A stretch of 64,000 nt of DNA from Alphaproteobacteria bacterium (GCA_052389895.1 JBQTHM010000006.1:2056-66055), one strand, 5' to 3'. Numbered from the stretch's first letter, positions 18,921-58,295 are shown. Numbers and translations: made by a program. Notes: a model not told the origin generated them from the sequence alone.

Positions 18921-19011
18921 GAAGCCTGCGCCGCTACCGCGCAGATACTCGCATCCCAGCCTTAACGGCGGTTAAACACGGCGCACTAATGACGACGAGG
19001 TAACTGGTTGT

Positions 19012-30961: not shown

Positions 30962-30986
30962 TACGCGTGAGTTGCCCAAAAGTTCC
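30962..30986 (-). promoter_or_regulatory. EcfG-type promoter motif (GGAAC-N16-CGTA) for nepR-ecfG
   Basis: The minus strand reads GGAAC TTTTGGGCAACTCACG CGTA. The -10 block has one mismatch to CGTT. Confidence 0.5.
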
Positions 30987-30993
30987 CGCCATG

Positions 30994-31018
30994 GGAACCT
31001 TTCCAGACAGGGCACGTT
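30994..31018 (+). promoter_or_regulatory. EcfG-type promoter motif GGAAC-N16-CGTT for phyR
   Basis: GGAAC at 30994-30998 and CGTT at 31015-31018, 28 nt upstream of the phyR ATG. Confidence 0.75.
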
Positions 31019-31045
31019 ACCATACGGGGATCGAGGGTCTTAGCC

Positions 31046-31837
31046 ATGAACGTGACGGAGTCTCTGGCGCCGCACCTGCCCTATTTGCGCCGCTATGCAA
31101 GGGCGCTTACCGGGTCCCAGGCCAGCGGCGACGCCTATGTGCGCGCCGCTCTTACCGCGCTGCTGGCAGGCCGGCAGGAGTTGTTGGAAGAGAGCTCGCC
31201 TAGGCTCGGGCTGTACCGTCTGTTTCACGCTATCTGGTCGAGTTCGGCCGAGCGCTTGGAAGACGAAATCGGTGCCGACCCGGAGGGTGGTCCGGAGGAA
31301 AGGTTGAAAGCGCTTGCCGCGCCGAAACGCGCCGCACTTTTGCTTACCGCCGTTGAAGGTTTCAGCTTGAACGAAGCCGCACACATTCTCGACGTGTCGT
31401 CGGGGGAGGTCGAGCGCGCCATTCTTGAGGCCCAGGCCGAAATCGAGCAGCAGCTCGCTTCGCGTGTCCTTATTATAGAGGACGAGTCCATTATTGCGCT
31501 CGATTTGGAAAATCTGGTCACCGACCTTGGCCATCAAGTAGTCGCAACCGCGACGACCAAGGATGAAGCCGTTGCCGCGGCGCGCCGCCACACGCCAGGG
31601 CTCATACTTGCCGATATCAATCTCGGCGAAGGTGGTTCGGGCATGGAGGCAGTGGCGGAAATCCTGCGCAGTTTCGACGTTCCCGTCATTTTTGTCACTG
31701 CATATCCGGAAAGGCTGCTAACCGGCGAGCGGCCGGAGCCGACCTACCTCGTGACAAAGCCATTCATGCCCGAAACGGTGCAGGCGACGATTGGGCAGGC
31801 GCTATTCTTTCACTCGGCTAACCGCAAGGCGGCCTAA
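31046..31837 (+). CDS. phyR: Anti-anti-sigma response regulator PhyR
   Basis: N-terminal sigma-like domain (LPYLRRYARALTGSQASGDAYV) plus a C-terminal REC domain (VLIIEDESIIALDL...ILADINLGEGGSG). Confidence 0.92.
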   Translation: MNVTESLAPHLPYLRRYARALTGSQASGDAYVRAALTALLAGRQELLEESSPRLGLYRLFHAIWSSSAERLEDEIGADPEGGPEERLKALAAPKRAALLLTAVEGFSLNEAAHILDVSSGEVERAILEAQAEIEQQLASRVLIIEDESIIALDLENLVTDLGHQVVATATTKDEAVAAARRHTPGLILADINLGEGGSGMEAVAEILRSFDVPVIFVTAYPERLLTGERPEPTYLVTKPFMPETVQATIGQALFFHSANRKAA

Positions 31838-42523: not shown

Positions 42524-43560
42524 TCGCCTTCCAGCACCTGGAACGCGCAAGTGAAACCGGGTCCAAGCGCGCTTGCCAGTGTGCGCTGCGCGTTCAAGCG
42601 GTCTTTCAGGCGCTCCAGCACAAAAAGAACCGTGACGGCCGACATGTTCCCATAGTCGCGCAGGATCTCCCGGCTTTCCTTCAGTCCGCCATTTGGGAGT
42701 CCCAGCGCCTCTTCCAGGGCGTCGAGCACCTTCGCGCCGCCTGGGTGGCACGCAAACCCAGCAAATTGCTCCAGGCGCATGTCGTTGCGATGAAGAAATT
42801 CAAGTGCAATTTTTCGGAAATCGCTCGCAACGAGAGAGGGGATGCTTTGCGCGAAGCGCGCCTTTAGGCCGTCCTCCTGGATATCCCAGCCCATCACGTC
42901 GAGCGAATGCGGCCACGTATATTCGCCGCCCGCGCCGATCCTGGGCCCCGCGCCGCCGGTCGAGAGGATCGCGCCTGCCGCGCCGTCTCCGAAGAGAGCC
43001 GCCGCGACGATATTGCTCTTGGAGAAATCGTCTTTGCGGAAAGTGAGTGCGCACAGTTCGACGACAAGCAAGAGCACCTTGGCTCCGGGCATGGCCGCCG
43101 CCATGTCGGCTGCACGCGCAAGGCCGATAACGCCCCCTGCACAGCCGAGGCCGAAGATCGGCAGGCGCTTGATGTCGCGCCTCAACCCCATCCGCTCGAC
43201 CAGCAGCGCATCCAGGCTGGGCGTTGCGATTCCCGTCGTGGAAACGGAGATGATGGCGTCGATCTGGTCGCGTTTAATTCCCGCTTGGGCGACGCAGCCC
43301 TGCGTTACAATTTCCAGAAGTGCGACCGCATTTTCGATGTAAAGCTCGTTACGGTCTATCCAGCCGTGCGGCTGTTCGTACCAATCCATTGGAACGCAGG
43401 AATAACGACGCTCAATTCCCGTATTCGCGAAGACGGGAAGCATTCGTTCGATGTCCTTGCCTTTGAAGATGATCTCGGCGCGGGCCTGAACGTCACCCTG
43501 TTTCAGCACGAAGGGCGGCACCGCCGTGCTCAGTGCCAACATGCGCACATTGCTTGACAT
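42520..43560 (-). CDS. Type III polyketide synthase (chalcone/stilbene synthase family)
   Basis: Catalytic triad contexts FGLGCAGG (Cys), FACHPGG (His) and YGNMSAVTV (Asn). Confidence 0.9.
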   Translation of the reverse strand: MSSNVRMLALSTAVPPFVLKQGDVQARAEIIFKGKDIERMLPVFANTGIERRYSCVPMDWYEQPHGWIDRNELYIENAVALLEIVTQGCVAQAGIKRDQIDAIISVSTTGIATPSLDALLVERMGLRRDIKRLPIFGLGCAGGVIGLARAADMAAAMPGAKVLLLVVELCALTFRKDDFSKSNIVAAALFGDGAAGAILSTGGAGPRIGAGGEYTWPHSLDVMGWDIQEDGLKARFAQSIPSLVASDFRKIALEFLHRNDMRLEQFAGFACHPGGAKVLDALEEALGLPNGGLKESREILRDYGNMSAVTVLFVLERLKDRLNAQRTLASALGPGFTCAFQVLEGE

Positions 43561-43672
43561 GTTTTTTCCACATTGTGTGGCGCCGCCTCACTTGAGCGGA
43601 GACTATACCAAGCGACCGTCGGCGTCTCCAATACTCGGAGCTTGATTGTGATCCTATCCGTTCTTCGCAGAT

Positions 43673-44881
43673 TCAGAAGTACAGGCGAGCGGAAAGCTGC
43701 AATTGCGTGTCGGCGGCCTTTGGCCTATCGCCGGTAACGAACCGCTGATCGCGCGTGCTTTCTATGTGAAGCGCTTCCGCGGTAAGGCGCAGCCACTCTC
43801 GCGGGAACCAGCTTGCGGCGAATGTGAGCGCGTGACCGTTCTCGCTAAATGGCAAATCCGGGCCGGGATTGTGCTCGCGCGTCTCGAAAACCTCAGCGCG
43901 TGCCGCAAGGCGCACATCGCCCTCCTCCCAGCCTAACAGGGCGAAGGCGGAGTCGAAATTGGTAATGGCGTCGAAATTGGGAAAGGGCGTAATGATGGTG
44001 CGCCCCGTCATACCCTGGAGTAAGAGCGTAAACTGGCCGTGATGCGTCTTGAACCCCGCGCTCCAGAAATACGTGCGCCAGCCAAAAACGCCGTCAACCT
44101 CCTTCGCAGGGTCTGCCAGATTGTCGTAGTAGAGGATTTCAAACGCGCCGGTTCCTGCCTCGTCCCAGGATAGGCGTCCATACCAGCCAACGCGATGATC
44201 CAATTCTTTGAAGATCGGCGTATGCAAGGGGATTTTTGCGCCGAAAAGGATTGCTGTAGCGTCTGGTTCGCGAAGGCGGTCGAAAAGCCCCGTCGGGTGA
44301 TCATCCAGTGTCCAGCCACGGTCGGCAATCATCACGCCTGCCGGGTCGTTCCAGCCGAACGCGGCGGCGCTGAGCGTCAGGGTGCCGCGCTCGCGCCTCC
44401 ATTCGACGGTAGCCTCGGCGCCGATGGTGCGAAGTTCGGCGCCAACCCACGTGTTGATCGCCGAGGGCGTGAGTGTCCAATAGCTCGTCCACGCCATTTC
44501 GGTGTTCTCGAGCGAAATGGGCGGGAAGAATGCGCCGGCTTTCACCGACCAGCGCCACTCTGTAGTCGAGACCGGGCGGTAGCGCATGTACGCCTCCAGC
44601 AAATCCACGGGCGTGCGCTGATCGGGGCCAGCGCGAAGCGACAGGAATGCGATTAGTTCCGGCAGCAAAAGCACGTGGCCGTCGGCGGCAAGCTCGGCAA
44701 ACTGCAGATTCGAGTCGCCTCCTCCATAACGTGTTTTGCCCAATCCGCCATCCAGCCAACTGCGTTCGTCGGCGGGGAGCACGAGCCGCAAGTCGAGATA
44801 GCCTTCCAGCCCCGCATCCATGGCGTGGGCCATCGCGCATTCTGCCGAAAAGAAAAACGCGATGAGCAGCCTGCGCATCAT
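43673..44881 (-). CDS. Outer-membrane beta-barrel protein (family not recognised)
   Basis: Signal peptide MMRRLLIAFFFSAECAMAHA. Alternating aromatic/Gly-rich strands. C-terminal ...LQLSARLYF. Its start overlaps the upstream kinase stop. Confidence 0.5.
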   Translation of the reverse strand: MMRRLLIAFFFSAECAMAHAMDAGLEGYLDLRLVLPADERSWLDGGLGKTRYGGGDSNLQFAELAADGHVLLLPELIAFLSLRAGPDQRTPVDLLEAYMRYRPVSTTEWRWSVKAGAFFPPISLENTEMAWTSYWTLTPSAINTWVGAELRTIGAEATVEWRRERGTLTLSAAAFGWNDPAGVMIADRGWTLDDHPTGLFDRLREPDATAILFGAKIPLHTPIFKELDHRVGWYGRLSWDEAGTGAFEILYYDNLADPAKEVDGVFGWRTYFWSAGFKTHHGQFTLLLQGMTGRTIITPFPNFDAITNFDSAFALLGWEEGDVRLAARAEVFETREHNPGPDLPFSENGHALTFAASWFPREWLRLTAEALHIESTRDQRFVTGDRPKAADTQLQLSARLYF

Positions 44882-46692
44882 GCGGCGTGGCGCATTGGTT
44901 CGGCTGCCAGCGGCAGTTCAATAATGGCCGTGGTGCCTACATTGGGCGTGCTTTCGAGCACGAGCTTTCCGCCGTGCAGTTCGATAATCGCCTTTGCGAA
45001 AGGCAGCCCCACACCGGCGCCCTGCTGACGGCCATCAAGTGAGGAGCGGAGCCGGTGGAACGGCCGGACAATAATCGGCAGCAGATCCGGCTCGATTCCG
45101 GCGCCGCGATCGCAGATGCGCACAGTGAGGCGCTCCTGTTTAACCGCACCTGAAATAGTTACCTCGGCGCCTGCGGGCGAGAATTTCACGGCATTGTGCA
45201 GAAGATTGATAAAGGCTTGGCGCATCTTGGCGGCGTCTCCCGCCATGCGGGGCCACTGCGTCGCCTCGCTCGCCAACAAGATGCGGACGCCGGATTTTTC
45301 CGAGAAAGGCTTCAGCAGAATTACGCTTTCCCGTAACAGCACACCCGGTGCGATGGAGTCGTGGGCGATCTGGAGCCGTCCGGCCGCCGCTTCGGCTAGA
45401 TCGAGCATGCGCTGGACAAGCGCCAGGAGGTGATTGGCGCTTAACTGGATATCGCGCGCGTATTCGACATAGCGCCCCTGCCCCAGAGGGCCGAAAACCT
45501 GCTGTTCCAGCATACCGCTGAAACCAAGGATCGCGTTGAGCGGCGTGCGGAATTCATGGCTCATGTTGGTCAGAAACTGTGATTTGGCTTCGTTCGCGGT
45601 TACGGCTTGAGCCAGCGCAATCTCCATCGATTCAATGGCGCCTGTGAGGGCTGCTTCGCGCTCCGCGATCGCGCTGGTCATTTCGCGAAGCGCGTTGCCA
45701 AGACGCCCAACCTCGTGGCGCTGCCTGAAGACCGGCGGCGGCGTATAGTCGCCGGAAGCAATACGCTGCGCCACGGCAGCAAGTCCTTCCAGCGGCCGCG
45801 ATACGCCACGCACGATGAACATCGCGCCGCCGAGCGCGGCAAGCAGCGCAAGGATGAGAATGACAAGCATCGCGGTGACTATCGTGCGATAGACTGCAAG
45901 CGCTTCGTGGAGCGGATAGGCGACAACCGCGACAACAGGGGCGCTTTCCGCCAGCGTCTGCAGCCGGCCGACAACAGAAAGATACTCTCGGCCATCCGCC
46001 GCGGTGGCATGCGAGACGGCCTGCCCCGTGTCGGCGTAGCTGGTGGGGGGCAGAAGTCCGACCCGGTCGGCACTCTGCGCCGCAATGGTCCACGTCCCGT
46101 CCATTGCCTTTGTCGCCAGCGTGATGGAACGCGGCAGCGATGCAATCGACCTCAGCTTCTCCAGGAGCCCGTTATCCACAGGAATGAACGCCGCAATGAA
46201 CGCGATAGGGACGGGCGCGCGCACAGGTACCACGACAATCCAATAGATATATCCGTCGATGGCGGCGAGTGCGGTTCCTTTGTCCGCAGAAGCCGCTGCC
46301 TGAAGCAACTTTGGGAAGGGAAACTTACCGTCAGGCCCACCCGCTTGGCGCGTGTCTGCCGCGATCTCGCCCTGAAGCCCGATCAGGAGCATGCGCTCCG
46401 TGCCTATGCGGTGACCGTGATTGCGTAGAGCGGAGAGCTCGGTCTCGACGTCGCGTCTCGCAATGGCGGCTCGCAGCGCGTAGTCGAGCGAAAGAACCTG
46501 GACGCCGTCGGTCACCCGCTCGGAGAGAAAATCGAGCTGGCGCGTGAATTGCTCCAATTCTGCCGTAAGTTCGCGCTCGGCTTTCTTGACGAGGTCGCTT
46601 CGCACATAGCCGTAAATGAAGAGCGCGGTCAGGGCCTGCACGGCGACGAGCGTGACCACCAACAGGAGCGCGAGTCGATGGCGGAAGCTCAT
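44878..46692 (-). CDS. Sensor histidine kinase (periplasmic Cache-like domain, HAMP, HisKA, HATPase)
   Basis: TM1, a periplasmic region of about 250 aa, TM2, HAMP, H-box MSHEFRTPLNAILG, then DRGAGI and GAGVGL boxes. No response regulator is adjacent. Confidence 0.88.
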   Translation of the reverse strand: MSFRHRLALLLVVTLVAVQALTALFIYGYVRSDLVKKAERELTAELEQFTRQLDFLSERVTDGVQVLSLDYALRAAIARRDVETELSALRNHGHRIGTERMLLIGLQGEIAADTRQAGGPDGKFPFPKLLQAAASADKGTALAAIDGYIYWIVVVPVRAPVPIAFIAAFIPVDNGLLEKLRSIASLPRSITLATKAMDGTWTIAAQSADRVGLLPPTSYADTGQAVSHATAADGREYLSVVGRLQTLAESAPVVAVVAYPLHEALAVYRTIVTAMLVILILALLAALGGAMFIVRGVSRPLEGLAAVAQRIASGDYTPPPVFRQRHEVGRLGNALREMTSAIAEREAALTGAIESMEIALAQAVTANEAKSQFLTNMSHEFRTPLNAILGFSGMLEQQVFGPLGQGRYVEYARDIQLSANHLLALVQRMLDLAEAAAGRLQIAHDSIAPGVLLRESVILLKPFSEKSGVRILLASEATQWPRMAGDAAKMRQAFINLLHNAVKFSPAGAEVTISGAVKQERLTVRICDRGAGIEPDLLPIIVRPFHRLRSSLDGRQQGAGVGLPFAKAIIELHGGKLVLESTPNVGTTAIIELPLAAEPMRHAA

Positions 46693-46704
46693 GATGGCCG
46701 CCGC

Positions 46705-47361
46705 TCAGTAGGTCTTGCTGTGGGGGTGCTTTACGCCGCGATGGCGCGCCCGCAGCAGCGGGATGGAAAGCGAAACTTTTGCACCGGAGTCCGTCACGTT
46801 CAGCGTGGCGGCCTTCGGGTGGTGTCCCGGCATGATTTGCGGGTCCCACACGCTCACGCGGTAGCGCCCTGGAGAAACGTTGCGGATTGTTGCCTGGCCG
46901 CTTGCGTCGGCGCTGACCGCCCAGGGCGTTTCGGCCACATAGACGAACGTCACCATGTGGTCATGAATGTTGCAGCCGATTGCCGCCACGCCGGGTATGT
47001 CGAAACTGACGGGCGCAGAAGTACGCCCGCGGTCGATCTCGAGGGCGAACCTCTTGATATCCGAAAATGAATACACCTGATGCATCGTGTGATCGCTGTT
47101 GCGAGACGCCACGCGTCCGCCGCGCCGAACGATCGTGACCAGCGGAATGAAGGTCTCGTCGCGCTGATCGACGATGGCTTCGAGCGGGAGCTGCGACGCC
47201 GGCACCCTTGTATTTCCACCCTCGGGTAATAATTCGACCACGGCATGGGCTGCGGGGCTGCCGTCCGTCCCCGTCACTGCAACTTCAACCGTCGCAGCGA
47301 ACGTCGCCGCGTTCGGGCAAAGAACGAGCGCAATAAGTCCCAATTTGAGGCGCCGGCACAT
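46705..47361 (-). CDS. Periplasmic cupredoxin-like protein (type-1 copper site candidate)
   Basis: Signal peptide. HTMHQVYSF and GCNIHDHM (C-x2-H-x2-M, the spacing seen in amicyanin). I recall this family being annotated as 'methylamine utilization protein'. Confidence 0.6.
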   Translation of the reverse strand: MCRRLKLGLIALVLCPNAATFAATVEVAVTGTDGSPAAHAVVELLPEGGNTRVPASQLPLEAIVDQRDETFIPLVTIVRRGGRVASRNSDHTMHQVYSFSDIKRFALEIDRGRTSAPVSFDIPGVAAIGCNIHDHMVTFVYVAETPWAVSADASGQATIRNVSPGRYRVSVWDPQIMPGHHPKAATLNVTDSGAKVSLSIPLLRARHRGVKHPHSKTY

Positions 47362-47563
47362 GGCGACAATTTATGGTGCCGGAATTAATCCCCTCTTTAT
47401 TTCTGGCTAATGGGAAGTAACCAAGAACCGTCTCGCCACACGGGGCGGCGGCCGCGATGCCGGCAAACTAAACTTTGTGGTTACCGCAGCCAGGGACTCA
47501 GGTTCTGGTTGTAGGGCTTTGCCGGCGCCAATTTATCCTTGACTTTCAAGCCTCTCCACCGGT

Positions 47564-47579
47564 TTAATTCTTTGTTAAC
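47564..47579. promoter_or_regulatory. CtrA-box consensus TTAA-N7-TTAAC
   Basis: TTAA at 47564-47567, a 7-nt spacer, TTAAC at 47575-47579. Lies in the AT-rich intergenic region 113 nt upstream of ATG 47692. Confidence 0.4.
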
Positions 47580-47691
47580 CATGTAACCGGTGCGTTTGTT
47601 CGAGGGTCGGGCAAATGAGTCGGCGCGACCCTGGTGAGCGGGGCACGCGCTGCAACCTCGAGCGGCCATCACCGGCAGGTGAGGTGTCGCA

Positions 47692-49137
47692 ATGTTGGCG
47701 TATGAAGAGTTGCGTGGCTCGCAAGGCCGCGAGGTGTGGTTTCGCCCGCCCCGGTACGAAGCAAGAAAACTTTTTCCGCATGTCTTGCCGCGCGTTCGCG
47801 TCGGCGGTCATCTTTACAACCTTCAAAACATCAGCCTCGGCGGCGTTGCCGCGCTCGCGCAGCACGGCGCGGATTCCCCGCTTGAGGTCGGCGAAGTCGT
47901 ACCGCTGACAATCCAGCAGTCGGGCCTTTCCATTTTTGAAAGCGAAGCGCGCGTCTGCCGTACGGAGACGACGGTATTTGGCACGAAGGTCGCCTTTCAC
48001 TTCCTCAACAATCACGTCGAATTTGAAACGCTCCTCAACCGCAATACGCAGGCACAGATTGCCCGCCGCTCGGCGATGCTCAACGGCGAACTGAGCCAGC
48101 TCGTGTCCAAGGACTATCGCGCGTTCTGTTCCGATGTCTTAAACGTGCTGCGCTCCTACCGTGTCGTGCTCGACGAAAATGCGAATCTGGCGCGCCAGTT
48201 CGGGCACGGTTTCGACGAAGGCGGCGCATTCGAGGCGTGCATCGAACCCCTTCTTTCGCAATGGCGTGCGCTATGGCGCATGGGCAACGATCTCGCTCGC
48301 GCAGTGGAACACAAGCGCGAGGCTCTAGAGGCCAGCAAGGAATTCACGGAAATCGTGCTTACGCCCGAAATGCGTGGCGGCGCCATATGGGAGCGCAGCT
48401 ACGCCAAGCCGTTCGGCTATCCTGGCGATTTTGGCGTCATGAACCAGGTTTACGATTGGGAGCGGCGGGGCAATGACGTCTATCAGATGTTGCTCCATCG
48501 GCTGGGACTGGAAGTCGCAGAATGCATCAAGACGCGCATGGAAGTGGTCAAGGGCGTCATCTCGCGACTGTTGCGCGAGAGGGGGGCGGACGGAACGGCG
48601 CAGGTCATGAGTCTCGGGTCCGGACCCGCCCGTGAAGTCGAGCTGTATCTCGCTGGCACCCACGTCTTGCCGGCCCGAGCCGAATTCACCCTAATCGATC
48701 AAGAGCAGGCAGCCCTGCGCTACGCCTTTGAGAAGACGTATCCGCATATTGTCCGGCTGAAGCAACATGCGCGCGTGCGCTGTCTCAATATGTCGTTCAC
48801 GGAGATACTCAAGAGCAATGAGGCATTTGAGGCCGTGCCGCCCCAGGATCTTATCTATTCGGTTGGGCTGCTCGACTACCTCGTGGACCGGCGTGCCGCG
48901 CGCCTGACGCAAAGTCTGTACAACACCCTTGCACACGGTGGCCTGCTCATCATCGGCAATATGAACGAAACCGAACTCAGCAATCTCTGGCCAATGGAGT
49001 TCATTGCCGACTGGACGCTGCATTATCGCGACGGAAAGCAGATGCTGGCATGGGTCGACGGCCTGCGACCCGCGCAAGCGTGGACCGAGCTCGATCCCAC
49101 GGGCCGCGTACGTCTCTTGTACGTGCGGAAACCCTAA
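47692..49137 (+). CDS. PilZ domain - helical linker - class I SAM-dependent methyltransferase fusion (PhcB-like C-terminal part)
   Basis: N-terminus has RYEAR (RxxxR) and NISLGG ([D/N]xSxxG). C-terminus has VMSLGSGPAREV (motif I), DLIYSVGLLDYL and GGLLIIGN. The linker ends in KPFGYPGDFGVMNQVY. Confidence 0.7.
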   Translation: MLAYEELRGSQGREVWFRPPRYEARKLFPHVLPRVRVGGHLYNLQNISLGGVAALAQHGADSPLEVGEVVPLTIQQSGLSIFESEARVCRTETTVFGTKVAFHFLNNHVEFETLLNRNTQAQIARRSAMLNGELSQLVSKDYRAFCSDVLNVLRSYRVVLDENANLARQFGHGFDEGGAFEACIEPLLSQWRALWRMGNDLARAVEHKREALEASKEFTEIVLTPEMRGGAIWERSYAKPFGYPGDFGVMNQVYDWERRGNDVYQMLLHRLGLEVAECIKTRMEVVKGVISRLLRERGADGTAQVMSLGSGPAREVELYLAGTHVLPARAEFTLIDQEQAALRYAFEKTYPHIVRLKQHARVRCLNMSFTEILKSNEAFEAVPPQDLIYSVGLLDYLVDRRAARLTQSLYNTLAHGGLLIIGNMNETELSNLWPMEFIADWTLHYRDGKQMLAWVDGLRPAQAWTELDPTGRVRLLYVRKP

Positions 49138-50558
49138 CCCGCAGCCTTCAACGGCAGGACAGTCCCGCGCTCCACATAACGGCTCGGGGGAAGCCACACG
49201 GTTGCGGTCGTGCCCTTGCCGAGCTCGCTTTCGAGCGTGAGCTTGCCGCCATGGAGTTGAGCGAGTCGGTCGGCGTAGGGAAGCCCAAGCCCTGTGCCGC
49301 CATGGCGGCGCGCCAAGGAACTTTCGACCTGCTCGAACGGGCGCAGCACGCGCGGGATCTCTTCCGCGGGGATACCGATCCCAGTGTCGATAACTTTTAT
49401 TACAACGCCTTCCTCGCGGCTCGCCGCAATCGAGAAGCGGATTTCGCCCCCTTCGCGCGTGAATTTCACGGCGTTGGAAACCAAATTCAGCACGAGCTGG
49501 AAGAGTAGCCTTTCGTCGGCGCGCACGAAGATCGGATGCACATTTTGCGGCGGTATGACGCGCACGCGAACGGCCTGGGCCGGGCCCTGGCACATGCGGA
49601 TGCAACGCCCAACCAGCTCGACGACGTCCACATCGCGCTCTTCAAGTTCGAGTTTCCCCGACTCCGCCTTAGCGAGGTCAAGAATGTCGTTGATGATCGA
49701 AAGCAGATGCGACCCGCTGCGGTGTATGTCATTGACGTAGTCGGTGTACTTCTCGTTGCCGAGCGGCCCATACATCTGCCGTTTGAGAATGTCGGAAAAC
49801 CCGATCACGGCATTTAGAGGCGTGCGCAACTCGTGGCTCATGGTGGCCAGGAATTCGCTCTTGGAACGGTTCGCCTTGTGCGCCTCCTGCAGCAGAACGT
49901 TGAGCAAAGCGTTTTTTGCCTCGATAATTCTTTGGCTGGCGTAGGCTTTGCGGATGTAGGTCTCCTCGATGTAGCCGGAGAAAAGTCCCACGCCCGTTGC
50001 CATTACGAGGAAGAAATCGTTGCTGATCGCCATTTCGCTAGGGATGGGATTTATCCACCAGCATACCGCCTGGTATGCAGCCACGAGCACGACCGATATC
50101 CAGAGCGAATGGATGAAGCGCAAGCGAATGAGGGTGCCGCAGTAGATCACAACCATGATAAGGCCGGCGTAGTACTGACTGTTGAAGGGTGCGTCCATAA
50201 TGGCGGTCATCGCCACAATGCTGAGCCCGGCCACCATCATGGTGGAGCCCAGCGCCGCCTGCGCATATTTGTGGAAGTTGCGGGAAAATGTGAGGGCGAG
50301 CACCGCAAACAGGAAGGGCGTCACGGCGCCGTACCGGATCGCCCAAAGGGCGAGATAATTGTCGCCGCCCACTATGCGATCGAGAATTCCGAACATCATG
50401 TAAAGGAATGTGCCGGCGATAATGTAGGTGCGGATGAAATTCATCGATTGTGCGAGAGATTCTCGCGCAAACTTCGCTTCGGCCTGCGGGTCGCGAAACC
50501 GCAGCCGGACCCGGTCAAGCTCGAAGCTCTGCTCGGTTGATTCAAATGCCGAGGACAA
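49134..50558 (-). CDS. Histidine kinase with integral-membrane (about 6 TM) sensor block
   Basis: N-terminal polytopic domain with no sizeable periplasmic loop. H-box MSHELRTPLNAVIG, then DTGIGI and GTGLGL boxes. Its 3' end overlaps the PilZ-MTase gene by 4 nt. Confidence 0.85.
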   Translation of the reverse strand: MSSAFESTEQSFELDRVRLRFRDPQAEAKFARESLAQSMNFIRTYIIAGTFLYMMFGILDRIVGGDNYLALWAIRYGAVTPFLFAVLALTFSRNFHKYAQAALGSTMMVAGLSIVAMTAIMDAPFNSQYYAGLIMVVIYCGTLIRLRFIHSLWISVVLVAAYQAVCWWINPIPSEMAISNDFFLVMATGVGLFSGYIEETYIRKAYASQRIIEAKNALLNVLLQEAHKANRSKSEFLATMSHELRTPLNAVIGFSDILKRQMYGPLGNEKYTDYVNDIHRSGSHLLSIINDILDLAKAESGKLELEERDVDVVELVGRCIRMCQGPAQAVRVRVIPPQNVHPIFVRADERLLFQLVLNLVSNAVKFTREGGEIRFSIAASREEGVVIKVIDTGIGIPAEEIPRVLRPFEQVESSLARRHGGTGLGLPYADRLAQLHGGKLTLESELGKGTTATVWLPPSRYVERGTVLPLKAAG

Positions 50559-50733
50559 CGCGCATTTCGCCCAAAATAACCGCGCTCATCCTCGTGGGAA
50601 GGGATAAACGATCAAATAATCGGGTTCCTGTTAGCAACTTATTCTTTTTCGTTGCTTAAGCGTTTACCGCGCATGCAACTAAAACTTAACTCTTGTTTGC
50701 CGAGAATTGGCGGGCTTTCACCGGGGGCAGGGG

Positions 50734-52068
50734 ATGCGCGGCTATGCGACAGGCGTTTTGGCGGCTGGCTGCGTCTTGCTGGCGCAATTCGCACATGCTG
50801 CCGGTTACGGCCTGCGCGAGCACGGCGCGGACGCGGTCGGCGCCGCCTATGCCGGGGCAAGCGCCACGGCAACGGATGCAAGCTATCTTGCCTATAACCC
50901 GGCGGCGCTCGGCTTTGTGGATGACTCCGACTTAGCCCTTAGCCTCGCCGGCATATTTCCCACGTCTTCCGCGAACTATAGCGCGACAACATCTGCGCTT
51001 ACGCCCGTGGGCGGGCAGAACCGCCCCGATGGCTTCATCGACAATGCGGCGCTGCCGCAGATCGCCCTCCGGTTGCGCTTGGACGATAAATGGGCGATCG
51101 GCGTTTCTGTCACCGCGCCTTGGGGCCTCAGCACCGACTATCCGGAAGATTGGGTCGGGCGCTACTATGCGCTGCAAACCAAGCTCGTGACGGTGAATAT
51201 TGCACCGGTCGTTTCCTATACGATCGCGCCCGGTTTTGTTGTGGCGGCGGGCCCGGTGGCGCAATACGCGGACGGCAAGTTGTCCTCTGCCGTGGATGTA
51301 GGAACATTGGGCGCTCTCCTCGCCATCCCCGGTTCGATCCCGGGCGCGCAGGATATCAAGGCACGCTACAGTGCGGACGCCTGGGGCTGGGGCTTTACCG
51401 TTGGCGCCATGGCCGAGCTGAATGAGGCTGTTACACTCGGCGTTGCGTATCGCTCGGAAATCGACACCGATTTCGACGGCAAGCTCGATTTTCAACTGGG
51501 AGGCAATCCGATTGCGCTTGCCATTAACGGCGCAACGGGACTTTTTTCCGACACGCCTGCTACGACGTCGCTGACGACACCGGCAACCCTGCACGTCGGG
51601 GCGCGCGTCAGGCTGAATGAGCGCTGGACGCTCCTCGGCGAAGCCGACTGGACCGATTGGTCGGCCTTCGACGAGTTGCGGATCAAAGCGAAGAATCCGG
51701 CGCAACCTGACGATGTGACGCCCGCGGATTGGAAGGGCGCATGGCTCTTCGCCGCCGGGCTGGAATTTCAGGCCGACGAGCGCTGGTCGCTGAAAGCGGG
51801 AGCCGCCTATGACGAAAGCCCGGTTCCCGATTCCACTTTTGGCCCGCGCATTCCCGATGCCGATCGCACCTGGATCGCGCTGGGGGCGCGTTACCGCATG
51901 AGCGAACGATCGCATGTATCGTTCGCGCTCGCGCATTTGTTTCTCCCCGAGCGCGATGCGCACCTGTCCGCTCTGCAGCCTGCGAACGCGCTGAGAGGCA
52001 ACCTGGACGGATCATCGGAATCCGGCGTGACCGTCGTTGCCGTGGAGTTTTCCTTTCCGCTGAACTGA
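50734..52068 (+). CDS. fadL: OmpP1/FadL/TodX family outer-membrane transporter of hydrophobic compounds
   Basis: ATG 50734. Signal peptide ...LAQFAHA|AGYGLREHGADAVGAAYAG (typical FadL N-terminus). C-terminal ...VAVEFSFPLN. Confidence 0.85.
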   Translation: MRGYATGVLAAGCVLLAQFAHAAGYGLREHGADAVGAAYAGASATATDASYLAYNPAALGFVDDSDLALSLAGIFPTSSANYSATTSALTPVGGQNRPDGFIDNAALPQIALRLRLDDKWAIGVSVTAPWGLSTDYPEDWVGRYYALQTKLVTVNIAPVVSYTIAPGFVVAAGPVAQYADGKLSSAVDVGTLGALLAIPGSIPGAQDIKARYSADAWGWGFTVGAMAELNEAVTLGVAYRSEIDTDFDGKLDFQLGGNPIALAINGATGLFSDTPATTSLTTPATLHVGARVRLNERWTLLGEADWTDWSAFDELRIKAKNPAQPDDVTPADWKGAWLFAAGLEFQADERWSLKAGAAYDESPVPDSTFGPRIPDADRTWIALGARYRMSERSHVSFALAHLFLPERDAHLSALQPANALRGNLDGSSESGVTVVAVEFSFPLN

Positions 52069-52167
52069 CCACTATTGCCTGGCAGCGAATTTCAAAATAA
52101 CGCCCGCCGGCCTTGCCCTTGCCCCTGTCTATAGGCGAGGTTTCGCCCGCACCTTTTGGGGATTGGC

Positions 52168-53925
52168 ATGCTTGTGCGAAAGGTGACGCGCGCCGTCCCT
52201 TGGCTGGTTGCCGGGGCGTTCGCGCTTTCTATTGCCGTACATTCGCATGCGGCGGAAACGCCCCGCTATGACGTGCTCATTCGCGGCGGCGCGATTTACG
52301 ACGGCACGGGTGAGAAATCGTTCGTCGGCGACGTCGCCGTCGCCGGCGACCGCATTGTTTTTGTCGGGCGGAAAGCGGTCGGCGGCGCACGGCACCTGAT
52401 TGATGCGCGCGGCCTGGCCGTGGCGCCGGGCTTTATCAACATGCTGAGCTGGTCCACCGAATCTCTGATCGTGGACGGGCGCGGCCAAAGCGAACTCAGG
52501 CAGGGCATCACGCTCGAAGTGATGGGCGAAGGCTGGTCCATGGGGCCGCTCAACGAGCCGATGAAGCGGCTGGCAGAGCAGCGCCAGGGCGACATCAAGT
52601 TCAAGATCACCTGGACGACACTTGGCGAATATCTCGATACCCTTCAGAAAAGGGGAATCTCTCTCAATGTTGCCTCGTTCGTCGGCGCCACGACCGTGCG
52701 TATTCACGAGCTCGGCGAAGGCAACGTGCAGCCCAATGCGGCGCAACTCAATCGCATGCGCTCGCTTGTGCGCAAAGCAATGGAGGAGGGAGCGCTCGGT
52801 CTCGGCTCGTCGCTCATTTACGCGCCGGCGAACTACGCGCGCACGCCGGAATTGGCGGCACTGGCGGAAGAGGCGGGCGCCTGCGGAGGAATCTACATTT
52901 CCCACATTCGCAGCGAGGGCGACAAAATCGAAGCCGCGCTTGACGAATTGTTCGCGATCAGCCGCACGGCGAAGGTGCCGGCGGAAATCTATCACTTGAA
53001 GGCTGCAGGCAAATCGAACTGGCGGTAACTCCCTGCGGTGCTCGATAAGATCGGCACGGCGCGCGCGCAAGGGCTGCGGATCACCGCGAACATGTACGTC
53101 TATGAGGCCGGTGCCACCGGGCTCGATGCGGCGATGCCGCCTTGGGTGCAGGCGGGCGGACTGGAAGCATGGATTGCCCGTCTGAAAGATCCGGGAATCC
53201 GCAAACGTGTCATTGCCGAAATGCGCGATCCCAAACCGGCATGGGAGAACCTGTACGCGCATTCCGGCGCGGACGGTGTGCTCTTCCTTGGCTTCAAATC
53301 GGAAAAGCTGAAGCCGCTTACAGGCAAGAAGCTGAGCGAGGTAGCGCGAATGCGCGGCGCCAGCCCCGAGGACACGATCATTGATCTTGTGATCGAAGAC
53401 GATTCCCGCGTGGACGTCGCCTATTTTCTCATGGCCGAGGAAAACATCGCCAGGCAGGTCGCGCTTCCATATGTAAGCTTCGGTTCGGACGAAGCCGCAC
53501 GCGCCCCCGAAGGCGTTTTTCTCAAGTCGAACCCCCACCCGCGCGCTTACGGAAATTTCGCCAGACTGCTCGGCAAGTATGTTCGCGAAGAAAAGCGCGT
53601 AGAATTGGCCGAGGCCATCCGCCGGCTGACGTCCCTTCCGGCTGCCAATCTTGCATTGCGCGGCCGCGGTCTTCTGCGCAAAGGCTACTTCGCTGATGTG
53701 GTCGTATTCGATCCGAAAACCATCCGCGACCATGCCACCTACGAAAACCCTCAGCGCTACGCTACGGGCGTGCGCCACGTGCTGGTCAATGGCGTGCTGG
53801 CGCTCAAAGACGGTGAACCCACGGACGCGCGCCCGGGCCGTGTCGTACGCGGCCGTGCCTGGAAGGGCTGGCACGACGGCGGCTGCCGCAAGTCCGGCGC
53901 GGAGTGGCGCTGGGCGAGGAGCTGA
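52168..53925 (+). pseudogene. N-acyl-D-amino-acid deacylase (D-aminoacylase) family gene interrupted by an in-frame TAA
   Basis: ORFs 52156..53028 and 53038..53925 are in the same frame and are separated only by TAA at 53026-53028 (...HLKAAGKSNWR*LPAVLDKIG...). Together they form one amidohydrolase (DVLIRGGAIYDGTG, APGFINMLSW, FGSDEAA). Confidence 0.75.
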
Positions 53926-54061
53926 CCACCATTAAGCATTTGTTTCGGAGCGGTTTTTTCCTGTCCGGCGCGCCGCAACCTTGAGTGCAGCCCAAGCGTT
54001 ATGTTGCCTCGGGATGGCGCGCGGGGAGCCTGCCGTGGGATCGGGGCGGCCAGTCGCATTC

Positions 54062-55975
54062 ATGCAAAAGAGGGTTCCGGTGCGCGCTTTGGCGTGCGCT
54101 GTGGCGCTTGTTTGCTGTACCCAGCCGGCGCTCGCGCAATCGCAGATTGCCTCTATTTGGGACCTGCGCGAACTCAGCATAGAAGAGCTCGCCAATCTGG
54201 AAATCACCTCGGTCGCCAAGCAGCGCTCGCCGCTGCAGGAGGCACCCGCTTCCGTCTATGTCGTCACCGGCGAAGAAATCCGGCGCAGCGGCGCCAACAG
54301 CGTGCCGGAAGCGCTCAGGCTGGCGCCCAACCTGCAAGTGGCGCGGCTGAACGCGGCGACTTACGCCATCACGGCGCGCGGGTTCAATCACGAAACTGCC
54401 ACGGCAAACAAGCTTCTGGTTCTGATCGACGGCCGCACCGTATACACGCCGCTCTATTCCGGCGTCTTCTGGGACACCCAATCCGTGATGCTGGCCGATA
54501 TCGATCGCATCGAGGTCATTAGCGGGCCTGGCGGGGCGTTGTGGGGCACGAACGCGGTGAACGGCGTGATCAACATCATCACGCGGCCCGCAGATCAAAC
54601 CGCCGGCGTGCATTTCGACGCGGGCTACGGAAATCTCGACAAGGTGGTCAATGCCCGTTTCGGCGGTGCCTTGGGCGAAGACGCAAGTTTTCGCATTTAC
54701 GCCATGGGCGAAAAGCGCGGCCCGCTGGAAACGCCGGACGGCAAGGACGCCAAGGACGACTGGCAAAAACTCCAAGGCGGATTCCGAGCCGATTTCGGCG
54801 AAGGCGCAAGCACGTTTACCCTTCAGGGCGACATCTACGCGGGCGAGTCTGAACACGTGCCCGCCGGCTCCGTTTCCGAAAACACGCTCAGCGGCGGCAA
54901 TCTCTTGGGCCGCTGGGTTCAGCGGTTTTCCGACGGATCGAATTTGCAGTTGCAGGCCTATTACGACAATGCCAGGCGGACCACCATCAGCGGAATTACG
55001 TCGCTCGTTTCCACCTACGACATGGACGTGCATTATGCGTTTCGCATGGGCGAGCGGCATGCATTTGTGGTGGGCGGCGGGTATCGCTACATCGAGGACA
55101 AGTTTACGCCGGGGCCGGCAACGGCGTTTCTCGATCCCGCCGAGCGCACTCTGGAGCTGGCCAACGTTTTCGTTCACGACCAGGTTGCACTTCAGCCCGA
55201 TCTTACACTTTCCCTGGGCGTCAAACTCGAAACCAACTCTTATACGGGCCTCGAGTACATGCCCGAGGCCCGGCTGGCCTGGCTCGCCTCCGAAACATCC
55301 ATGCTGTGGGTTGCCGTTGCCAGGGCCGTGCGCACCCCGTCGCGTGTCGATCGCGATCTCTACGTTACGGGCCTACTCGCAGGCGGTCCGGACTTCGTAT
55401 CCGAGGATTTGATCGCGACCGAAGTCGGCTATCGCGGCCAGCCTGCGCCAAATTTCTCGCTTTCAGCCTCGGTCTTCTTCAATGTTTATGACGACTTGCG
55501 CACCGTCGAGGCGACCGGGGCGCCGTTTCCCCTTGTCGTCAAGAATAACATGGAGGGCGAGACGTACGGCGCCGAAGCATGGGCCGTGTACGATGCCACG
55601 GACTGGTGGCGATTGCGTGCCGGGGTGAGCACATTGCACAAGGACCTGGAGCTCAAGAAAGGCAGCACCGATTTCTTCGGCACCGGCTTCGCCGGGAACG
55701 ATCCCGAGTATCAAATCTCATTGCGCTCGGCGATGGACTTTGGCGACATCGAACTTGACCTCGGCTTGCGGGCGATAGACGCTCTTCCCGGACCGAGTGT
55801 CCCCGCTTACGTGGAGGCGGACGCGCGGATCGGCTGGCATCTCTCGGAGACCATGGATCTTTCGCTGCTCGGCGCAAATCTGCTGCACGAGCGCCACCTG
55901 GAATTCGTGAGCTCCAGCCTGCCTCGACGCGAGGTTCCGCGCTCGTTTTTCGTCAGTTTTACTTGGCGGCCTTAG
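54062..55975 (+). CDS. TonB-dependent outer-membrane receptor
   Basis: ATG 54062. Signal peptide, then LSIEELANLEITSVAKQRSPLQEAPASVYVVTGEEIRRSGANSVPEALRLAPNLQV (plug), then a beta-barrel. Confidence 0.88.
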   Translation: MQKRVPVRALACAVALVCCTQPALAQSQIASIWDLRELSIEELANLEITSVAKQRSPLQEAPASVYVVTGEEIRRSGANSVPEALRLAPNLQVARLNAATYAITARGFNHETATANKLLVLIDGRTVYTPLYSGVFWDTQSVMLADIDRIEVISGPGGALWGTNAVNGVINIITRPADQTAGVHFDAGYGNLDKVVNARFGGALGEDASFRIYAMGEKRGPLETPDGKDAKDDWQKLQGGFRADFGEGASTFTLQGDIYAGESEHVPAGSVSENTLSGGNLLGRWVQRFSDGSNLQLQAYYDNARRTTISGITSLVSTYDMDVHYAFRMGERHAFVVGGGYRYIEDKFTPGPATAFLDPAERTLELANVFVHDQVALQPDLTLSLGVKLETNSYTGLEYMPEARLAWLASETSMLWVAVARAVRTPSRVDRDLYVTGLLAGGPDFVSEDLIATEVGYRGQPAPNFSLSASVFFNVYDDLRTVEATGAPFPLVVKNNMEGETYGAEAWAVYDATDWWRLRAGVSTLHKDLELKKGSTDFFGTGFAGNDPEYQISLRSAMDFGDIELDLGLRAIDALPGPSVPAYVEADARIGWHLSETMDLSLLGANLLHERHLEFVSSSLPRREVPRSFFVSFTWRP

Positions 55976-55993
55976 CCATCCGGCGAGGATGAA

Positions 55994-56527
55994 TTGAACC
56001 GCAGCTGGATTTTTATATTGCTCATGGTTTTGGCGATGTCCGGCGGCCCAGCCGCCGGCGAGGTGACGCTCGAAACGGCGATCAAGGCCACGTACCTTTA
56101 CAAGTTCGCGCCTTTCGTCGAATGGCCGGCCGGGCCGGAAGGCCCGTTCGGGCTCTGTGTCATGGGCAAGGACCCCTTCGGAGACGCACTCGACGACGCC
56201 GTTTATGCCGAAAAGATCAACGGGCGGCCCATTAAGGTTCAGAGGATAAAATCGGCCTCCGCGGCAAAAGGCTGCCACATTCTCTACATAGGCGGCGACC
56301 ATCGTCAGGTCGCGGCAGCTTTGAACCGGTTGCGAAGCCTGCCTGTGCTGACCGTGACGGATTTGCCGCGCGATGCACAAGCGAAGGGAGTTGTCAATTT
56401 TGTCATTGTCGACAACCATGTCCGCTTCGAAATCGACGATGCGGCCGCCGCCGAAAATGGACTTGTGATCAGTTCGAAGTTGCTGCGCCTTTCGCGCGGG
56501 GTGCGGCAGAGGCCGACGAAGCAATGA
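55994..56527 (+). CDS. YfiR-like periplasmic protein (DUF4154)
   Basis: TTG start. Signal peptide. Motifs AIKATYLYKFAPFVEWP and CHILYIG typical of DUF4154/YfiR. Confidence 0.72.
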   Translation: MNRSWIFILLMVLAMSGGPAAGEVTLETAIKATYLYKFAPFVEWPAGPEGPFGLCVMGKDPFGDALDDAVYAEKINGRPIKVQRIKSASAAKGCHILYIGGDHRQVAAALNRLRSLPVLTVTDLPRDAQAKGVVNFVIVDNHVRFEIDDAAAAENGLVISSKLLRLSRGVRQRPTKQ

Positions 56528-57900
56528 TCATGCGCAGGCTCCATCGCTGGACAATGGGCCCCGTGCTCGCGCTCGCCGGAGCCGTGCTCCTGCTTGCGGC
56601 GGGCGTAGCGACCGCCGTCTATCAAAACTCGCTATACACCGCACAGAAGACGCACGAAGTCACGGCTCAGGCGCAAATACTGGCCGCCAGCGTCACCGCC
56701 GCACTCGATTTCAACGATACGATAACGGCGCAGGAATACGTCAATGCGCTCCGGGCCAATCCCGAAGTGCGCGCGGCTGGCGTTTACAACATGGATGGCA
56801 TTGCAGTGGCCGCCTATGTACGCGAAGGCGAACCACCGCTTCCCAAGTCGGTAAGCGCAGGCGGCGCAATGGCAGACGGGGACAGCATAATCGTCACTGT
56901 GCCTGTCGTTCAAAACGGTGCGTTGCTCGGCCGCGTATTTGTTCGCTCCAGCACGGATACCTTCGAGCGGCGCCTGATGCGCTACGGCGTCATCGCACTG
57001 CTTGCATGTATGGCGGCGCTCCTGTTCGCCGTGGCCGGCCTGTCCCAGGCGGCGCTCTCGCGCGCAAACCGGGCGCTCGAAATGCGTGCGGGGGAGCTGG
57101 CAGCCGCAAACGAAAAGCTTCAGGCGGAAATGATAGAGCGCGCGAAGGCGGAAGAAGCGTTGCGCCAGAGTCAGAAGATGGAAGCCATAGGCCAGCTTTC
57201 CGGCGGTATTGCGCACGACTTCAACAATTTGCTGACGGTCATCAAGGGCAATCTGCAGCTTCTCGAACGGCGCATCGCGCAAGGGCGGACGGACGTAAAG
57301 CGTTACGTCGACTCGGCAGCGGAAGCACTCAGGCGTGCCGCGACGCTCACGCAGCGCGTGCTGGCATTTTCGCGCCGCCAGCCGCTTTCTCCGCGCCCCG
57401 TTCATTTGAGCCGTCTTATCGAGGACATGCGCGAGCTGCTGCGTCACTCGGTCGGCGAGACCGTTAAGCTTGAAAACCGCCTTGCCGCGGATTGGTGGAC
57501 ATTCTGCGATGCGAACCAGTTGGAAAATGTGATTCTCAACCTCGTCAACAACGCGCGCGATGCTATGCCCCGGGGCGGAATGCTGACGATCGCAACGGAA
57601 AACGCATACGTGGATAGCCGCGAAGCCGAGGAAAAGGGAATCTCGCCGGGCGACTATGTCCGTCTGTCCGTGCACGACACGGGCGTCGGCATGCCGGAAG
57701 AAGTGCGCAGCAAGGCAATCGATCCGTTTTTCACGACCAAGCCCCACGGGCAGGGCACGGGGCTCGGCCTCAGCATGAGCTTCGGTTACGTGCGCCAGTC
57801 CAACGGCTTCATGGACATCGAGAGTGCCGTGGGGCGGGGCACAATCGTTAGGATTCTCATGCCAAGATACGCTGCCGAATCGGAGGCTTTGAGGGCGTGA
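56524..57900 (+). CDS. Sensor histidine kinase with small periplasmic sensor domain
   Basis: Start overlaps the yfiR-like stop (ATGA). TM, a periplasmic region of about 120 aa ([17 protein letters not shown]...), TM, coiled coil, H-box [17 protein letters not shown] box. Confidence 0.88.
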
Positions 57901-58295
57901 TGATGGTTGACGGCCCGAGCGGCGCGAAGCCCACCGTGCTCGTAGCGGAAGACGAGGCCATGCTGCGTGTGGTCGCCGTCGAGGTGCTGACGGATGCGGG
58001 CTATCGCGTCCTGGAAGCCGGCGACGGCAATACGGCGCTCAAGGCGATTCAGGATGACGCAAATGTGGATCTCCTCATCAGCGACATCAAGATGCCGGGC
58101 CTCAATGGATACGAACTTGCGGAAGCGGGCATGGCGTTGCGCCCAGCCATGAAAGTGCTGTTGATGACCGGATATGTGCAGGAACCCATTCCCGCCAAGA
58201 TGGCGGCAGCGGGCGTTCGCGTCCTCTACAAGCCCTTCGACATCGATCAGCTTCCGGCGCTGGCCGATTCCATGCTGAAGAACAGGCCCTTCTAG
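57900..58295 (+). CDS. Single-domain response regulator
   Basis: Motifs VLVAEDEAMLR...ISDIKMPGLNG...K. Its start overlaps the kinase stop. Confidence 0.85.
   Translation: MMVDGPSGAKPTVLVAEDEAMLRVVAVEVLTDAGYRVLEAGDGNTALKAIQDDANVDLLISDIKMPGLNGYELAEAGMALRPAMKVLLMTGYVQEPIPAKMAAAGVRVLYKPFDIDQLPALADSMLKNRPF

Follow-up and report, generated by a model that had tools for sequence, protein, structure and literature searches.

The window analysed here is a 64-kb stretch of an alphaproteobacterial metagenome-assembled genome (JBQTHM010000006.1:2056-66055 of GCA_052389895.1), and all positions are counted from its first letter. Three genes are the subject of this text. The first lies on the + strand at 47692..49137 and encodes a 481-aa protein made of a PilZ domain, an all-helical domain and a methyltransferase domain, a putative signal synthase of the PhcB family (hereafter the synthase). 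The second lies convergently on the - strand at 49134..50558 and encodes a 474-aa sensor histidine kinase of probable PhcS type. The third, divergent from the kinase on the + strand at 50734..52068, encodes an outer-membrane channel of the FadL/TodX family for hydrophobic compounds. An earlier note on this DNA had read the three genes as a candidate module for a lipophilic signal gated by cyclic diguanosine monophosphate (c-di-GMP), and all the genes and motifs it named were located where it had placed them. The nearest relatives of the 481-aa protein come from Rhizomicrobium and Micropepsaceae, and one NCBI entry is identical at 100%; the source organism is a soil alphaproteobacterium, Micropepsaceae/Rhizomicrobium-like.

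To describe the synthase, we built an AlphaFold2 model of the 481-aa protein from 44 sequences, with a predicted local distance difference test score (pLDDT) of 89.2 and a predicted template modelling score (pTM) of 0.83. In this model a PilZ barrel with its helix (residues 21-128), an all-helical part (133-297) and a Rossmann fold (302-479) follow one another. The start of the protein is fixed by the N-terminus MLAYE, which is invariant across 21 aligned sequences. The PilZ domain (residues 1-128; 47692..48075) consists of a beta-barrel at 21-105, with strands at 34-37, 40-48, 51-56, 69-76, 79-94 and 97-105, and a C-terminal helix at 111-128, and the pLDDT of this block is mostly 78-95. The Pfam profile PF07238 matches residues 35-117 (profile positions 16-98) with 25.2 bits against a gathering score of 22.5 (E 2.1e-5), which agrees with the PilZ signature that the earlier note had read from RYEAR and NISLGG. 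These two c-di-GMP motifs, RxxxR (R21-Y-E-A-R25; 47752..47766) and (D/N)hSxxG (N46-I-S-L-G-G51; 47827..47844), lie 21 residues apart, the usual spacing of canonical PilZ domains. Across the 21 aligned sequences, which are 60-84% identical, R21, S48 and G51 never change, R25 hardly does, and position 46 is always N or D. R21 stays invariant across 44 sequences down to 25% identity, and R25 is conserved at 90% or more among homologues with at least 60% identity. Loss of the motifs in orthologues is not what we see, as both are kept in 113 of 120 close homologues. By profile, motifs and the modelled six-strand barrel with its long helix, the domain is predicted to be a PilZ domain of the canonical c-di-GMP-binding type.

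The C-terminal part of the synthase is a predicted class I (Rossmann) S-adenosylmethionine (SAM)-dependent methyltransferase domain (residues 302-479; 48595..49128). The Pfam profile Methyltransf_12 matches it weakly (18.2 bits, below the gathering score of 30), and a Foldseek search with the model gave 817 PDB matches at E <= 1e-3; those listed are all methyltransferases (SgvM, CurJ, AprA MT2, O-methyltransferases) except the top match, 3ocj, which is uncharacterised. The SAM-binding motif LGSGPA is found at 308-313, with G311 invariant, the acidic residue that follows strand 2, D336, is conserved at 90% or more, and the peptides quoted in the earlier note, VMSLGSGPAREV, DLIYSVGLLDYL and GGLLIIGN, are also encoded by this gene. 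Searching solved structures by sequence gave no relative of the synthase (best E 0.076, with the family profile), and no matches to the PilZ part alone. The best structural matches are natural-product-type methyltransferases with many specificities and no solved structure is related by sequence; therefore the substrate is not assignable.

The all-helical domain (residues 133-297; 48088..48582, delimited by the helices of the model) contains the family signature KPFGYPGD (residues 239-246; 48406..48429), of which K239, P240, G242 and D246 are invariant, the PhcB clade included. The pattern KPxGYxGD occurs in all 120 PhcB-clade sequences and in 120 of 124 diverse full-length representatives of the family. 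From this linker motif the earlier note had drawn a tie to PhcB, the Ralstonia synthase of 3-hydroxy fatty-acid methyl ester quorum signals, and the tie is borne out by profile comparison: hhalign of the window family against the Cupriavidus/Paraburkholderia/Massilia PhcB clade gives a probability of 100% and E 1.1e-47 over 297 columns, which cover the helical and methyltransferase parts. With BLASTP, synthase residues 136-453 match a 468-aa protein of Paraburkholderia graminis at 28% identity (E 6e-27). This relative, found in a plasmid search, heads a methyltransferase-kinase-regulator-regulator operon, and Cupriavidus proteins are about 68% identical to it. One Cupriavidus orthologue stands in an operon of phcBSRQ layout, that is, a methyltransferase, a MASE8-HisKA-HATPase kinase, a receiver-HisKA-HATPase protein and a receiver protein. 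Besides, PhcB is the KEGG-derived name that the Joint Genome Institute gives to many homologues.

The Cupriavidus and Paraburkholderia orthologues stand in for Ralstonia PhcB here, which is justified because three features match. The operon layout is that described for phcBSRQ of Ralstonia (PMC10653808). R22 is invariant in our PhcB-clade alignment, and a conserved R22 has been reported among PhcB homologues that include Cupriavidus and Paraburkholderia proteins (PMC6989110). The H-box of the Cupriavidus kinase is at residue 230/231, matching the phospho-histidine of PhcS at residue 230 (PMC11960443). On these alignments, the helical and methyltransferase parts of the synthase are homologous to the betaproteobacterial PhcB clade.

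The 3' end of the synthase gene overlaps that of the convergent kinase gene, as had been noted earlier, and the two stops share the four bases CTAA at 49134..49137 (TAA on the + strand, TAG on the - strand). The kinase is provisionally assigned a MASE8 sensor, which is followed by HisKA and HATPase_c. Hydropathy places about six hydrophobic helices between residues 41 and 205 (49944..50438), with no long loop among them, which fits the earlier description of a polytopic membrane block without a periplasmic domain. Precomputed tables call this block MASE8 (PF20968) in the exact window kinase (P0399) and in 38 of its 120 best orthologues, and also in the Cupriavidus PhcS-like kinase and in the kinase of one deep lineage. 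The comparison with PhcS drawn in the earlier note thus gains a precomputed call shared by the window kinase and the kinase of the Cupriavidus phcBSRQ operon. The core matches HisKA with 76 bits, with H242 in SHELRTP, and HATPase_c with 104 bits, and appears catalytically competent.

To see how far the pairing extends, we took the 80 closest genomic loci (51-79% identity), 75 of which have enough downstream sequence for a kinase. In 70 of the 75 there is a kinase whose membrane sensor is homologous (45-70% identity); it is convergent in 69 and co-directional in one (L019; L-numbers are our handles for related loci), so that the neighbourhood first seen in a single stretch recurs across genomes. 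The stop codons are -29 to +20 bp apart in 53 of the 70 loci. Where the gap is wider, unrelated genes, for copper handling among others, have been inserted, and such insertions between synthase and kinase were seen in about a dozen loci. The pairing persists in three of four sampled deep lineages at about 31-36% identity; in the fourth, which has degenerate PilZ motifs, no kinase lies nearby. On a Pseudanabaena plasmid, a methyltransferase homologue overlaps a kinase by 4 bp in the same convergent geometry, and this kinase is 35% identical to the window kinase over its full length, membrane block included (E 5e-89). By these comparisons the convergent kinase is a conserved partner of the synthase, of probable PhcS type.

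Some individual loci depart from the common layout. In L019 (7001-10623), the only one of the 70 with a co-directional kinase, a 162-aa receiver follows, giving an operon like phcB-phcS-regulator within the alphaproteobacterial clade. In L002 (Pseudanabaena sp. PCC 7367 plasmid pPSE7367.01, 1264-7710), the family member is annotated as 280 aa and stands directly after a Tn3 transposase and a recombinase, and its PilZ part was probably lost by insertion. The convergent kinase there is followed by a single-domain receiver and, as the plasmid is conjugative, the pair may have spread horizontally. In L089 (6001-7434), a member with 27% identity and degenerate PilZ lies among many small genes that have no Pfam matches, with no kinase nearby, which may reflect a different use of the enzyme.

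The family is large. When 1.84 billion cluster representatives were searched exhaustively, 3,337 relatives came out, 1,571 of them at E <= 1e-10 and 202 at E <= 1e-30. Among 150 listed relatives, most are 470-500 aa long and can be aligned over their whole length at identities as low as 26%, and a scan of one genome per species gave 572 genomes with a relative. Judged from these alignments, the PilZ-helical-methyltransferase order is the standard architecture of a large family and not a unique fusion; databases already name such proteins "PilZ domain-containing". The earlier note had held a fusion of PilZ to a methyltransferase to be undescribed. This stands as far as a survey of PilZ fusions goes, which reports REC, GGDEF, EAL, HD-GYP, MCP, CheC, HlyD/Alg44, BcsA and protein kinase partners and no methyltransferase (10.1101/814665), and does not stand within the protein's own family, where the fusion is not unusual (202 clusters, 572 genomes). 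Of the 124 diverse full-length representatives, 92 keep (D/N)xSxxG; the second Arg of RxxxR drifts in distant members, and neither motif is kept in the PhcB clade (0 of 120).

The N-terminus of classical PhcB was compared with the PilZ domain in two ways. By sequence, the similarity between the window PilZ and the first 125 residues of PhcB is not significant (hhalign probability 2.5%). By structure, an AlphaFold2 model of residues 1-135 of the Cupriavidus PhcB orthologue (L086 7001-7405), with a core pLDDT of 72-82, has PilZ structures as its best 27 PDB matches (YcgR, MrkH, Alg44, PP4397 and BcsA among them), the best at E 3.7e-4 with a template modelling score of about 0.5. The modelled barrel has neither the N-terminal RxxxR segment nor the DxSxxG turn. 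Classical PhcB is thus predicted to carry a PilZ-fold barrel that has lost both c-di-GMP motifs, and because the sequence comparison is not significant, this PilZ nature is visible at the level of the fold only. An adaptive PhcB mutation, R22C, has been reported to lie outside the methyltransferase domain and in no known functional domain (PMC6989110); R22 is the invariant Arg in a strand of the predicted barrel, and if the model holds, this mutation shows that the PilZ-fold domain matters. On the most economical reading, PilZ and methyltransferase were already joined in the ancestor, and the betaproteobacterial clade would have lost the binding of c-di-GMP.

The third gene matches the Toluene_X profile (PF03349) with 299 bits over profile positions 2-419 of 421 and begins with the N-terminal signal peptide MRGYATGVLAAGCVLLAQFAHA. 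It scores 178 bits with the NCBIfam FadL equivalog NF007988, whose cut-off is 585; it is a member of the family and not an orthologue of the long-chain fatty-acid transporter FadL of E. coli. Its likely start, the ATG at 50734, leaves a spacer of 175 bp to the kinase gene (50559..50733) with a G+C content of 0.49, compared with 0.616 for the window. Of 66 related loci, 44 have a FadL gene divergent from the kinase gene. What the earlier note said of the family, the divergent orientation and the AT-rich spacer holds, but across related loci FadL is an accessory that is often present and lies outside the invariant core. An inverted repeat, AGCAAC-N12-GTTGCT, is indeed present in the spacer at 50633..50656, as had been pointed out, but it is at chance level. 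Shuffled spacers contain on average 0.68 such repeats and 41% of them contain at least one (P = 0.41), and among 41 homologous spacers only that of the window has it, so we rejected it as an operator. Its left arm is overlapped by a degenerate GTTAAC box (GTTAGC, 50630..50635).

The intact GTTAAC box is found upstream of the synthase, in a promoter-like block on the + strand (47539..47579) with TTGACT at 47539-47544, 18 nt, TTTAAT at 47563-47568 and GTTAAC at 47574-47579. The corresponding pattern CTTGA(C/T)-17/18-TATTAA-N5-(G/A)TTAAC is conserved over about 45 aligned loci; a consensus promoter scanner made no call on it, so the block rests on conservation. GTTAAC is enriched about 25-fold, with 4.0 per kb in synthase promoters and 3.6 per kb in kinase/FadL spacers against 0.15 per kb, and 60 of 85 AT-rich control windows with GTTAAC fall within those two promoter regions. 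The shared box suggests co-regulation and is a candidate operator of a common regulator. It is often seen as two or three phased copies, GTTAAC(C/T)ATTT, over the -35 and -10 elements of the synthase promoter (loci L003-L085). A structured leader upstream of the synthase was rejected, with no consensus structure in 35 leaders and a folding z-score of -0.70, and no riboswitch or other Rfam family matched at E <= 1 over 43000-53000. A conserved G-rich patch, approximately GGGGTGGCGTC-N-GGAAGCA, precedes the start codon by about 50-60 nt at many loci (window 47640-47670, leaders of L003-L070), and it has neither a conserved RNA structure nor an Rfam match.

Generally, the pair stands without a regulator gene. 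In the window, and at most of the 80 related loci, there is no receiver gene next to the kinase; the earlier note had already missed a cognate regulator in this module, and no response regulator is consistently linked to the pair across the related loci. The window pair therefore has no PhcR or PhcQ gene beside it, in contrast to a phcBSRQ operon, which acts through PhcA. A small receiver at 57897-58295 was considered as the cognate regulator and rejected; it overlaps the end of a CHASE8 histidine kinase (56524-57900). The two belong to a cluster at 53981-58295 that comprises a TonB-dependent receptor, a YfiR/HmsC-like DUF4154 protein, the CHASE8 kinase and the small receiver, the start of which overlaps the kinase stop. 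Parts of this cluster adjoin the module in L012, L018 and L047, which we treat as occasional; a related receiver gene is found in L018, and alone beside a MASE8-type kinase in L032 and L033.

Other genes of the window and of related loci are as follows. A receiver-EAL phosphodiesterase is encoded at 17736-18971, and c-di-GMP signalling is therefore present in the source organism. Close to it are a receiver-PAS-HisKA-HATPase hybrid kinase with two receiver matches (19015-20934) and a single receiver (20826-21569), and the general-stress regulator PhyR is at 30971-31834. Before the module, a separate three-gene unit on the - strand (43673-47361) comprises a CarboxypepD_reg-like protein (46705-47361), a dCache_3-HAMP histidine kinase (44878-46692) and a porin-like outer-membrane protein (43673-44881), whose ends overlap or nearly abut. 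Between FadL and the TonB receptor, the gene at 52156-53925, which we presume from its sequence to encode an amidohydrolase, is split by an in-frame TAA (53026-53028) into two open reading frames of the same frame, and may be a pseudogene or an assembly error. Lipid-related neighbours recur at related loci: FadL, MMPL, a CMAS-like methyltransferase, acyl-CoA thioesterase and acyl-CoA dehydrogenase. Those of distant members (L087 3083-11026; L090 1936-8921; L001 1739-4599; L004 6145-7731) include MMPL/RND transporters, and among distant members a CMAS-like methyltransferase is found between synthase and kinase. A CLC chloride channel lies upstream in both a Paraburkholderia phc-like locus and a Micropepsaceae locus.

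Having established the domain identities, the conservation of the motifs, the homology to PhcB and the deep conservation of the synthase-kinase pairing, we read the locus as a cell-to-cell signalling module of phc type in which c-di-GMP gates the synthase, a reading to which we give a probability of roughly 0.55. By analogy with Ralstonia PhcB, the substrate of the synthase would be a hydrophobic carboxylic acid, with a 3-hydroxy fatty acid as the likeliest, and the product would be its methyl ester, which can permeate membranes; from a PhcB-type synthase, methyl 3-hydroxymyristate or methyl 3-hydroxypalmitate would be expected. The PilZ domain probably binds c-di-GMP, and the effect of this may be relayed through the PilZ C-terminal helix and the helical domain covering the active site, which would switch the methyltransferase on or off and tune the signal output. 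The kinase with its probable MASE8 sensor is the likely receptor of the product, which it would detect in the membrane, passing the signal to a response regulator encoded elsewhere, and FadL probably helps the hydrophobic signal to cross the outer membrane. As a speculation, convergent transcription could couple the expression of synthase and receptor negatively, because the tail-to-tail overlap leaves no room for separate terminators. The gating of a lipophilic signal by c-di-GMP is a well-founded hypothesis. The complete chain, in which c-di-GMP on the PilZ domain directly switches the enzyme, a diffusible lipophilic autoinducer is made accordingly and the convergent kinase, probably with MASE8, reads it, is more doubtful and is offered tentatively.

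The observations that weigh against a c-di-GMP-gated phc-type module concern the PilZ domain, the product and the partners, and each set leads to a rival explanation. We infer the binding of c-di-GMP from the motifs only; both motifs are present in just 46 of the 124 diverse representatives (37%), so the domain can serve another role, and classical PhcB works without them. The pair could thus be of phc type while its PilZ is a structural or protein-interaction domain whose motif residues serve another purpose, a view favoured, besides that low share and the drifting second Arg of RxxxR, by the PhcB clade, which has the predicted fold, shows the motifs in 0 of 120 sequences and still makes its signal (PMC6989110). 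However, in the window clade the motifs are kept in 113 of 120 and R21, S48 and G51 do not vary at 60-84% identity, which is hard to explain without ligand binding, and according to the fusion survey the PilZ domains of fusion proteins retain c-di-GMP binding (10.1101/814665). We regard a PilZ that is no c-di-GMP sensor as unlikely. Besides, the synthase is only about 28% identical to PhcB, at which its substrate and product are unreadable from sequence. It could instead be a c-di-GMP-controlled methyltransferase of lipids or metabolites, for envelope remodelling or detoxification, with the kinase sensing membrane state or the substrate and FadL importing that substrate. The many specificities of its natural-product structural matches and the CMAS-like methyltransferase, thioesterase, acyl-CoA dehydrogenase and MMPL transporter genes at distant loci would suit such an enzyme. 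The only characterised relatives, however, are signal synthases paired with the same kinase type (PMC10653808), and the one-to-one pairing with a MASE8-type kinase across phyla, with no metabolic genes in the window itself, fits a synthase and its receptor better than a pathway enzyme, so a metabolic role is improbable to much the same degree.

As for the partners, hmmscan at E <= 10 found no MASE8 in the window kinase or in the Cupriavidus PhcS-like kinase (L086 8421-9752), and hhalign of the window sensor against two PhcS sensors was co-linear but weak (E 0.006, 154 columns, probability 5.9%). The HMMER filters may drop a membrane-domain match, which is one way in which precomputed tables and hmmscan could differ. 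MASE8 membership of the window kinase is likely but not firm. Moreover, no PhcR-, PhcQ- or PhcA-like gene is adjacent to the pair in the window, synthase and kinase are convergent and not co-transcribed as in Ralstonia, and FadL is missing in a third of the loci. The three genes might also be neighbours by accident and form no functional unit, in line with their three separate transcription units, the loci without FadL and the insertions in about a dozen loci. Against this, a kinase stands beside the synthase gene in 70 of 75 loci, the pair recurs in deep lineages and on a cyanobacterial plasmid, arranged tail to tail as in the window, and the GTTAAC box is common to both promoter regions. For the methyltransferase-kinase pair, chance adjacency is effectively refuted by the synteny, and for the three genes together it is very improbable.

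Several known systems share parts of this design. CqsA/CqsS of Vibrio and LqsA/LqsS of Legionella use a lipophilic alpha-hydroxyketone autoinducer that is sensed by a kinase with a polytopic membrane block and no periplasmic domain, and their synthase and kinase genes are adjacent, as in the window; the synthase there is an unrelated pyridoxal phosphate-dependent acyltransferase, and we know of no c-di-GMP input on CqsA or LqsA. The Lqs system is also described in PMC10653808. With phc of Ralstonia and Cupriavidus, the window shares homologous helical and methyltransferase domains with KPxGYxGD, an N-terminal PilZ-fold barrel (predicted for PhcB), a partner kinase of probable MASE8-HisKA-HATPase architecture, and adjacent synthase and kinase genes. 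It differs from phc in that its PilZ keeps both motifs, which are lost in all 120 PhcB-clade sequences examined, that synthase and kinase converge on overlapping stop codons and are not co-transcribed, that PhcR and PhcQ are not adjacent while FadL is often attached, and that at about 28% identity the product may differ.

Control of a methyltransferase by PilZ is known in trans. In Pseudomonas aeruginosa, the single-domain PilZ adaptor MapZ, when bound to c-di-GMP, binds and inhibits the SAM methyltransferase CheR1 (10.1101/2020.02.11.943704), and a Xanthomonas PilZ adaptor binds an N5-glutamine methyltransferase (PMC11250160). In both, c-di-GMP acts through PilZ on a class I methyltransferase, with the PilZ C-terminal helix as the likely interface, as may be the case here; these adaptors act on protein methyltransferases, whereas the window PilZ is in cis with a methyltransferase of small-molecule type. 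In BcsA and Alg44, a canonical PilZ domain in the same polypeptide or complex allosterically gates the enzyme, as we infer for the window protein, but their output is exopolysaccharide synthesis, and PilZ is C-terminal in BcsA and N-terminal in the window protein. For the channel, FadL is cited as mediating the uptake of long-chain acyl-homoserine lactones in rhizobia (Sinorhizobium; Krol and Becker 2014, as cited in PMC9938287). This is a direct precedent, in which a FadL-family channel helps a hydrophobic quorum signal across the outer membrane, as is probable here; fadL of Sinorhizobium is unlinked to synthase or receptor, whereas the window type is divergent from the receptor kinase in two-thirds of loci.

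In the literature that we covered, no paper was found that ties PhcB to PilZ or to direct c-di-GMP control; subscription journals lay outside this coverage, and an earlier description is possible. The only nucleotide control of phcB found is transcriptional, via 2',3'-cGMP (PMC10667535), and PilZ control of methyltransferases was found only in trans. The combination of PilZ and methyltransferase domains is itself not hidden, since database labels already exist. What appears to be new is the following, taken jointly: these proteins are linked to PhcB, PhcB itself has a predicted PilZ fold, and PhcB/PhcS-like pairs are widespread. One survey found the phc cluster largely restricted to Betaproteobacteria, and the divergent PhcB/PhcS-like pairs in hundreds of other genomes change this view of the phc system.

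Whether bacteria live freely or in communities is decided mainly by two systems, quorum sensing and c-di-GMP. To our knowledge, in the links known between the two, quorum sensing acts on c-di-GMP enzymes, or the effect is on transcription. If our reading is true, the synthase would carry its own c-di-GMP receptor and the second messenger would stand directly upstream of the signal output; of such post-translational control of quorum-signal production by a second messenger we found no description. Phc-type signalling would then be ancestral and widespread beyond Betaproteobacteria, in at least 572 species genomes, with alphaproteobacteria and a cyanobacterial plasmid among the contexts examined. 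PhcB of Ralstonia would be a derived form that lost the c-di-GMP input and kept the PilZ fold, and its N-terminal region, the site of R22C, would gain a structural identity as a predicted PilZ fold without ligand motifs.

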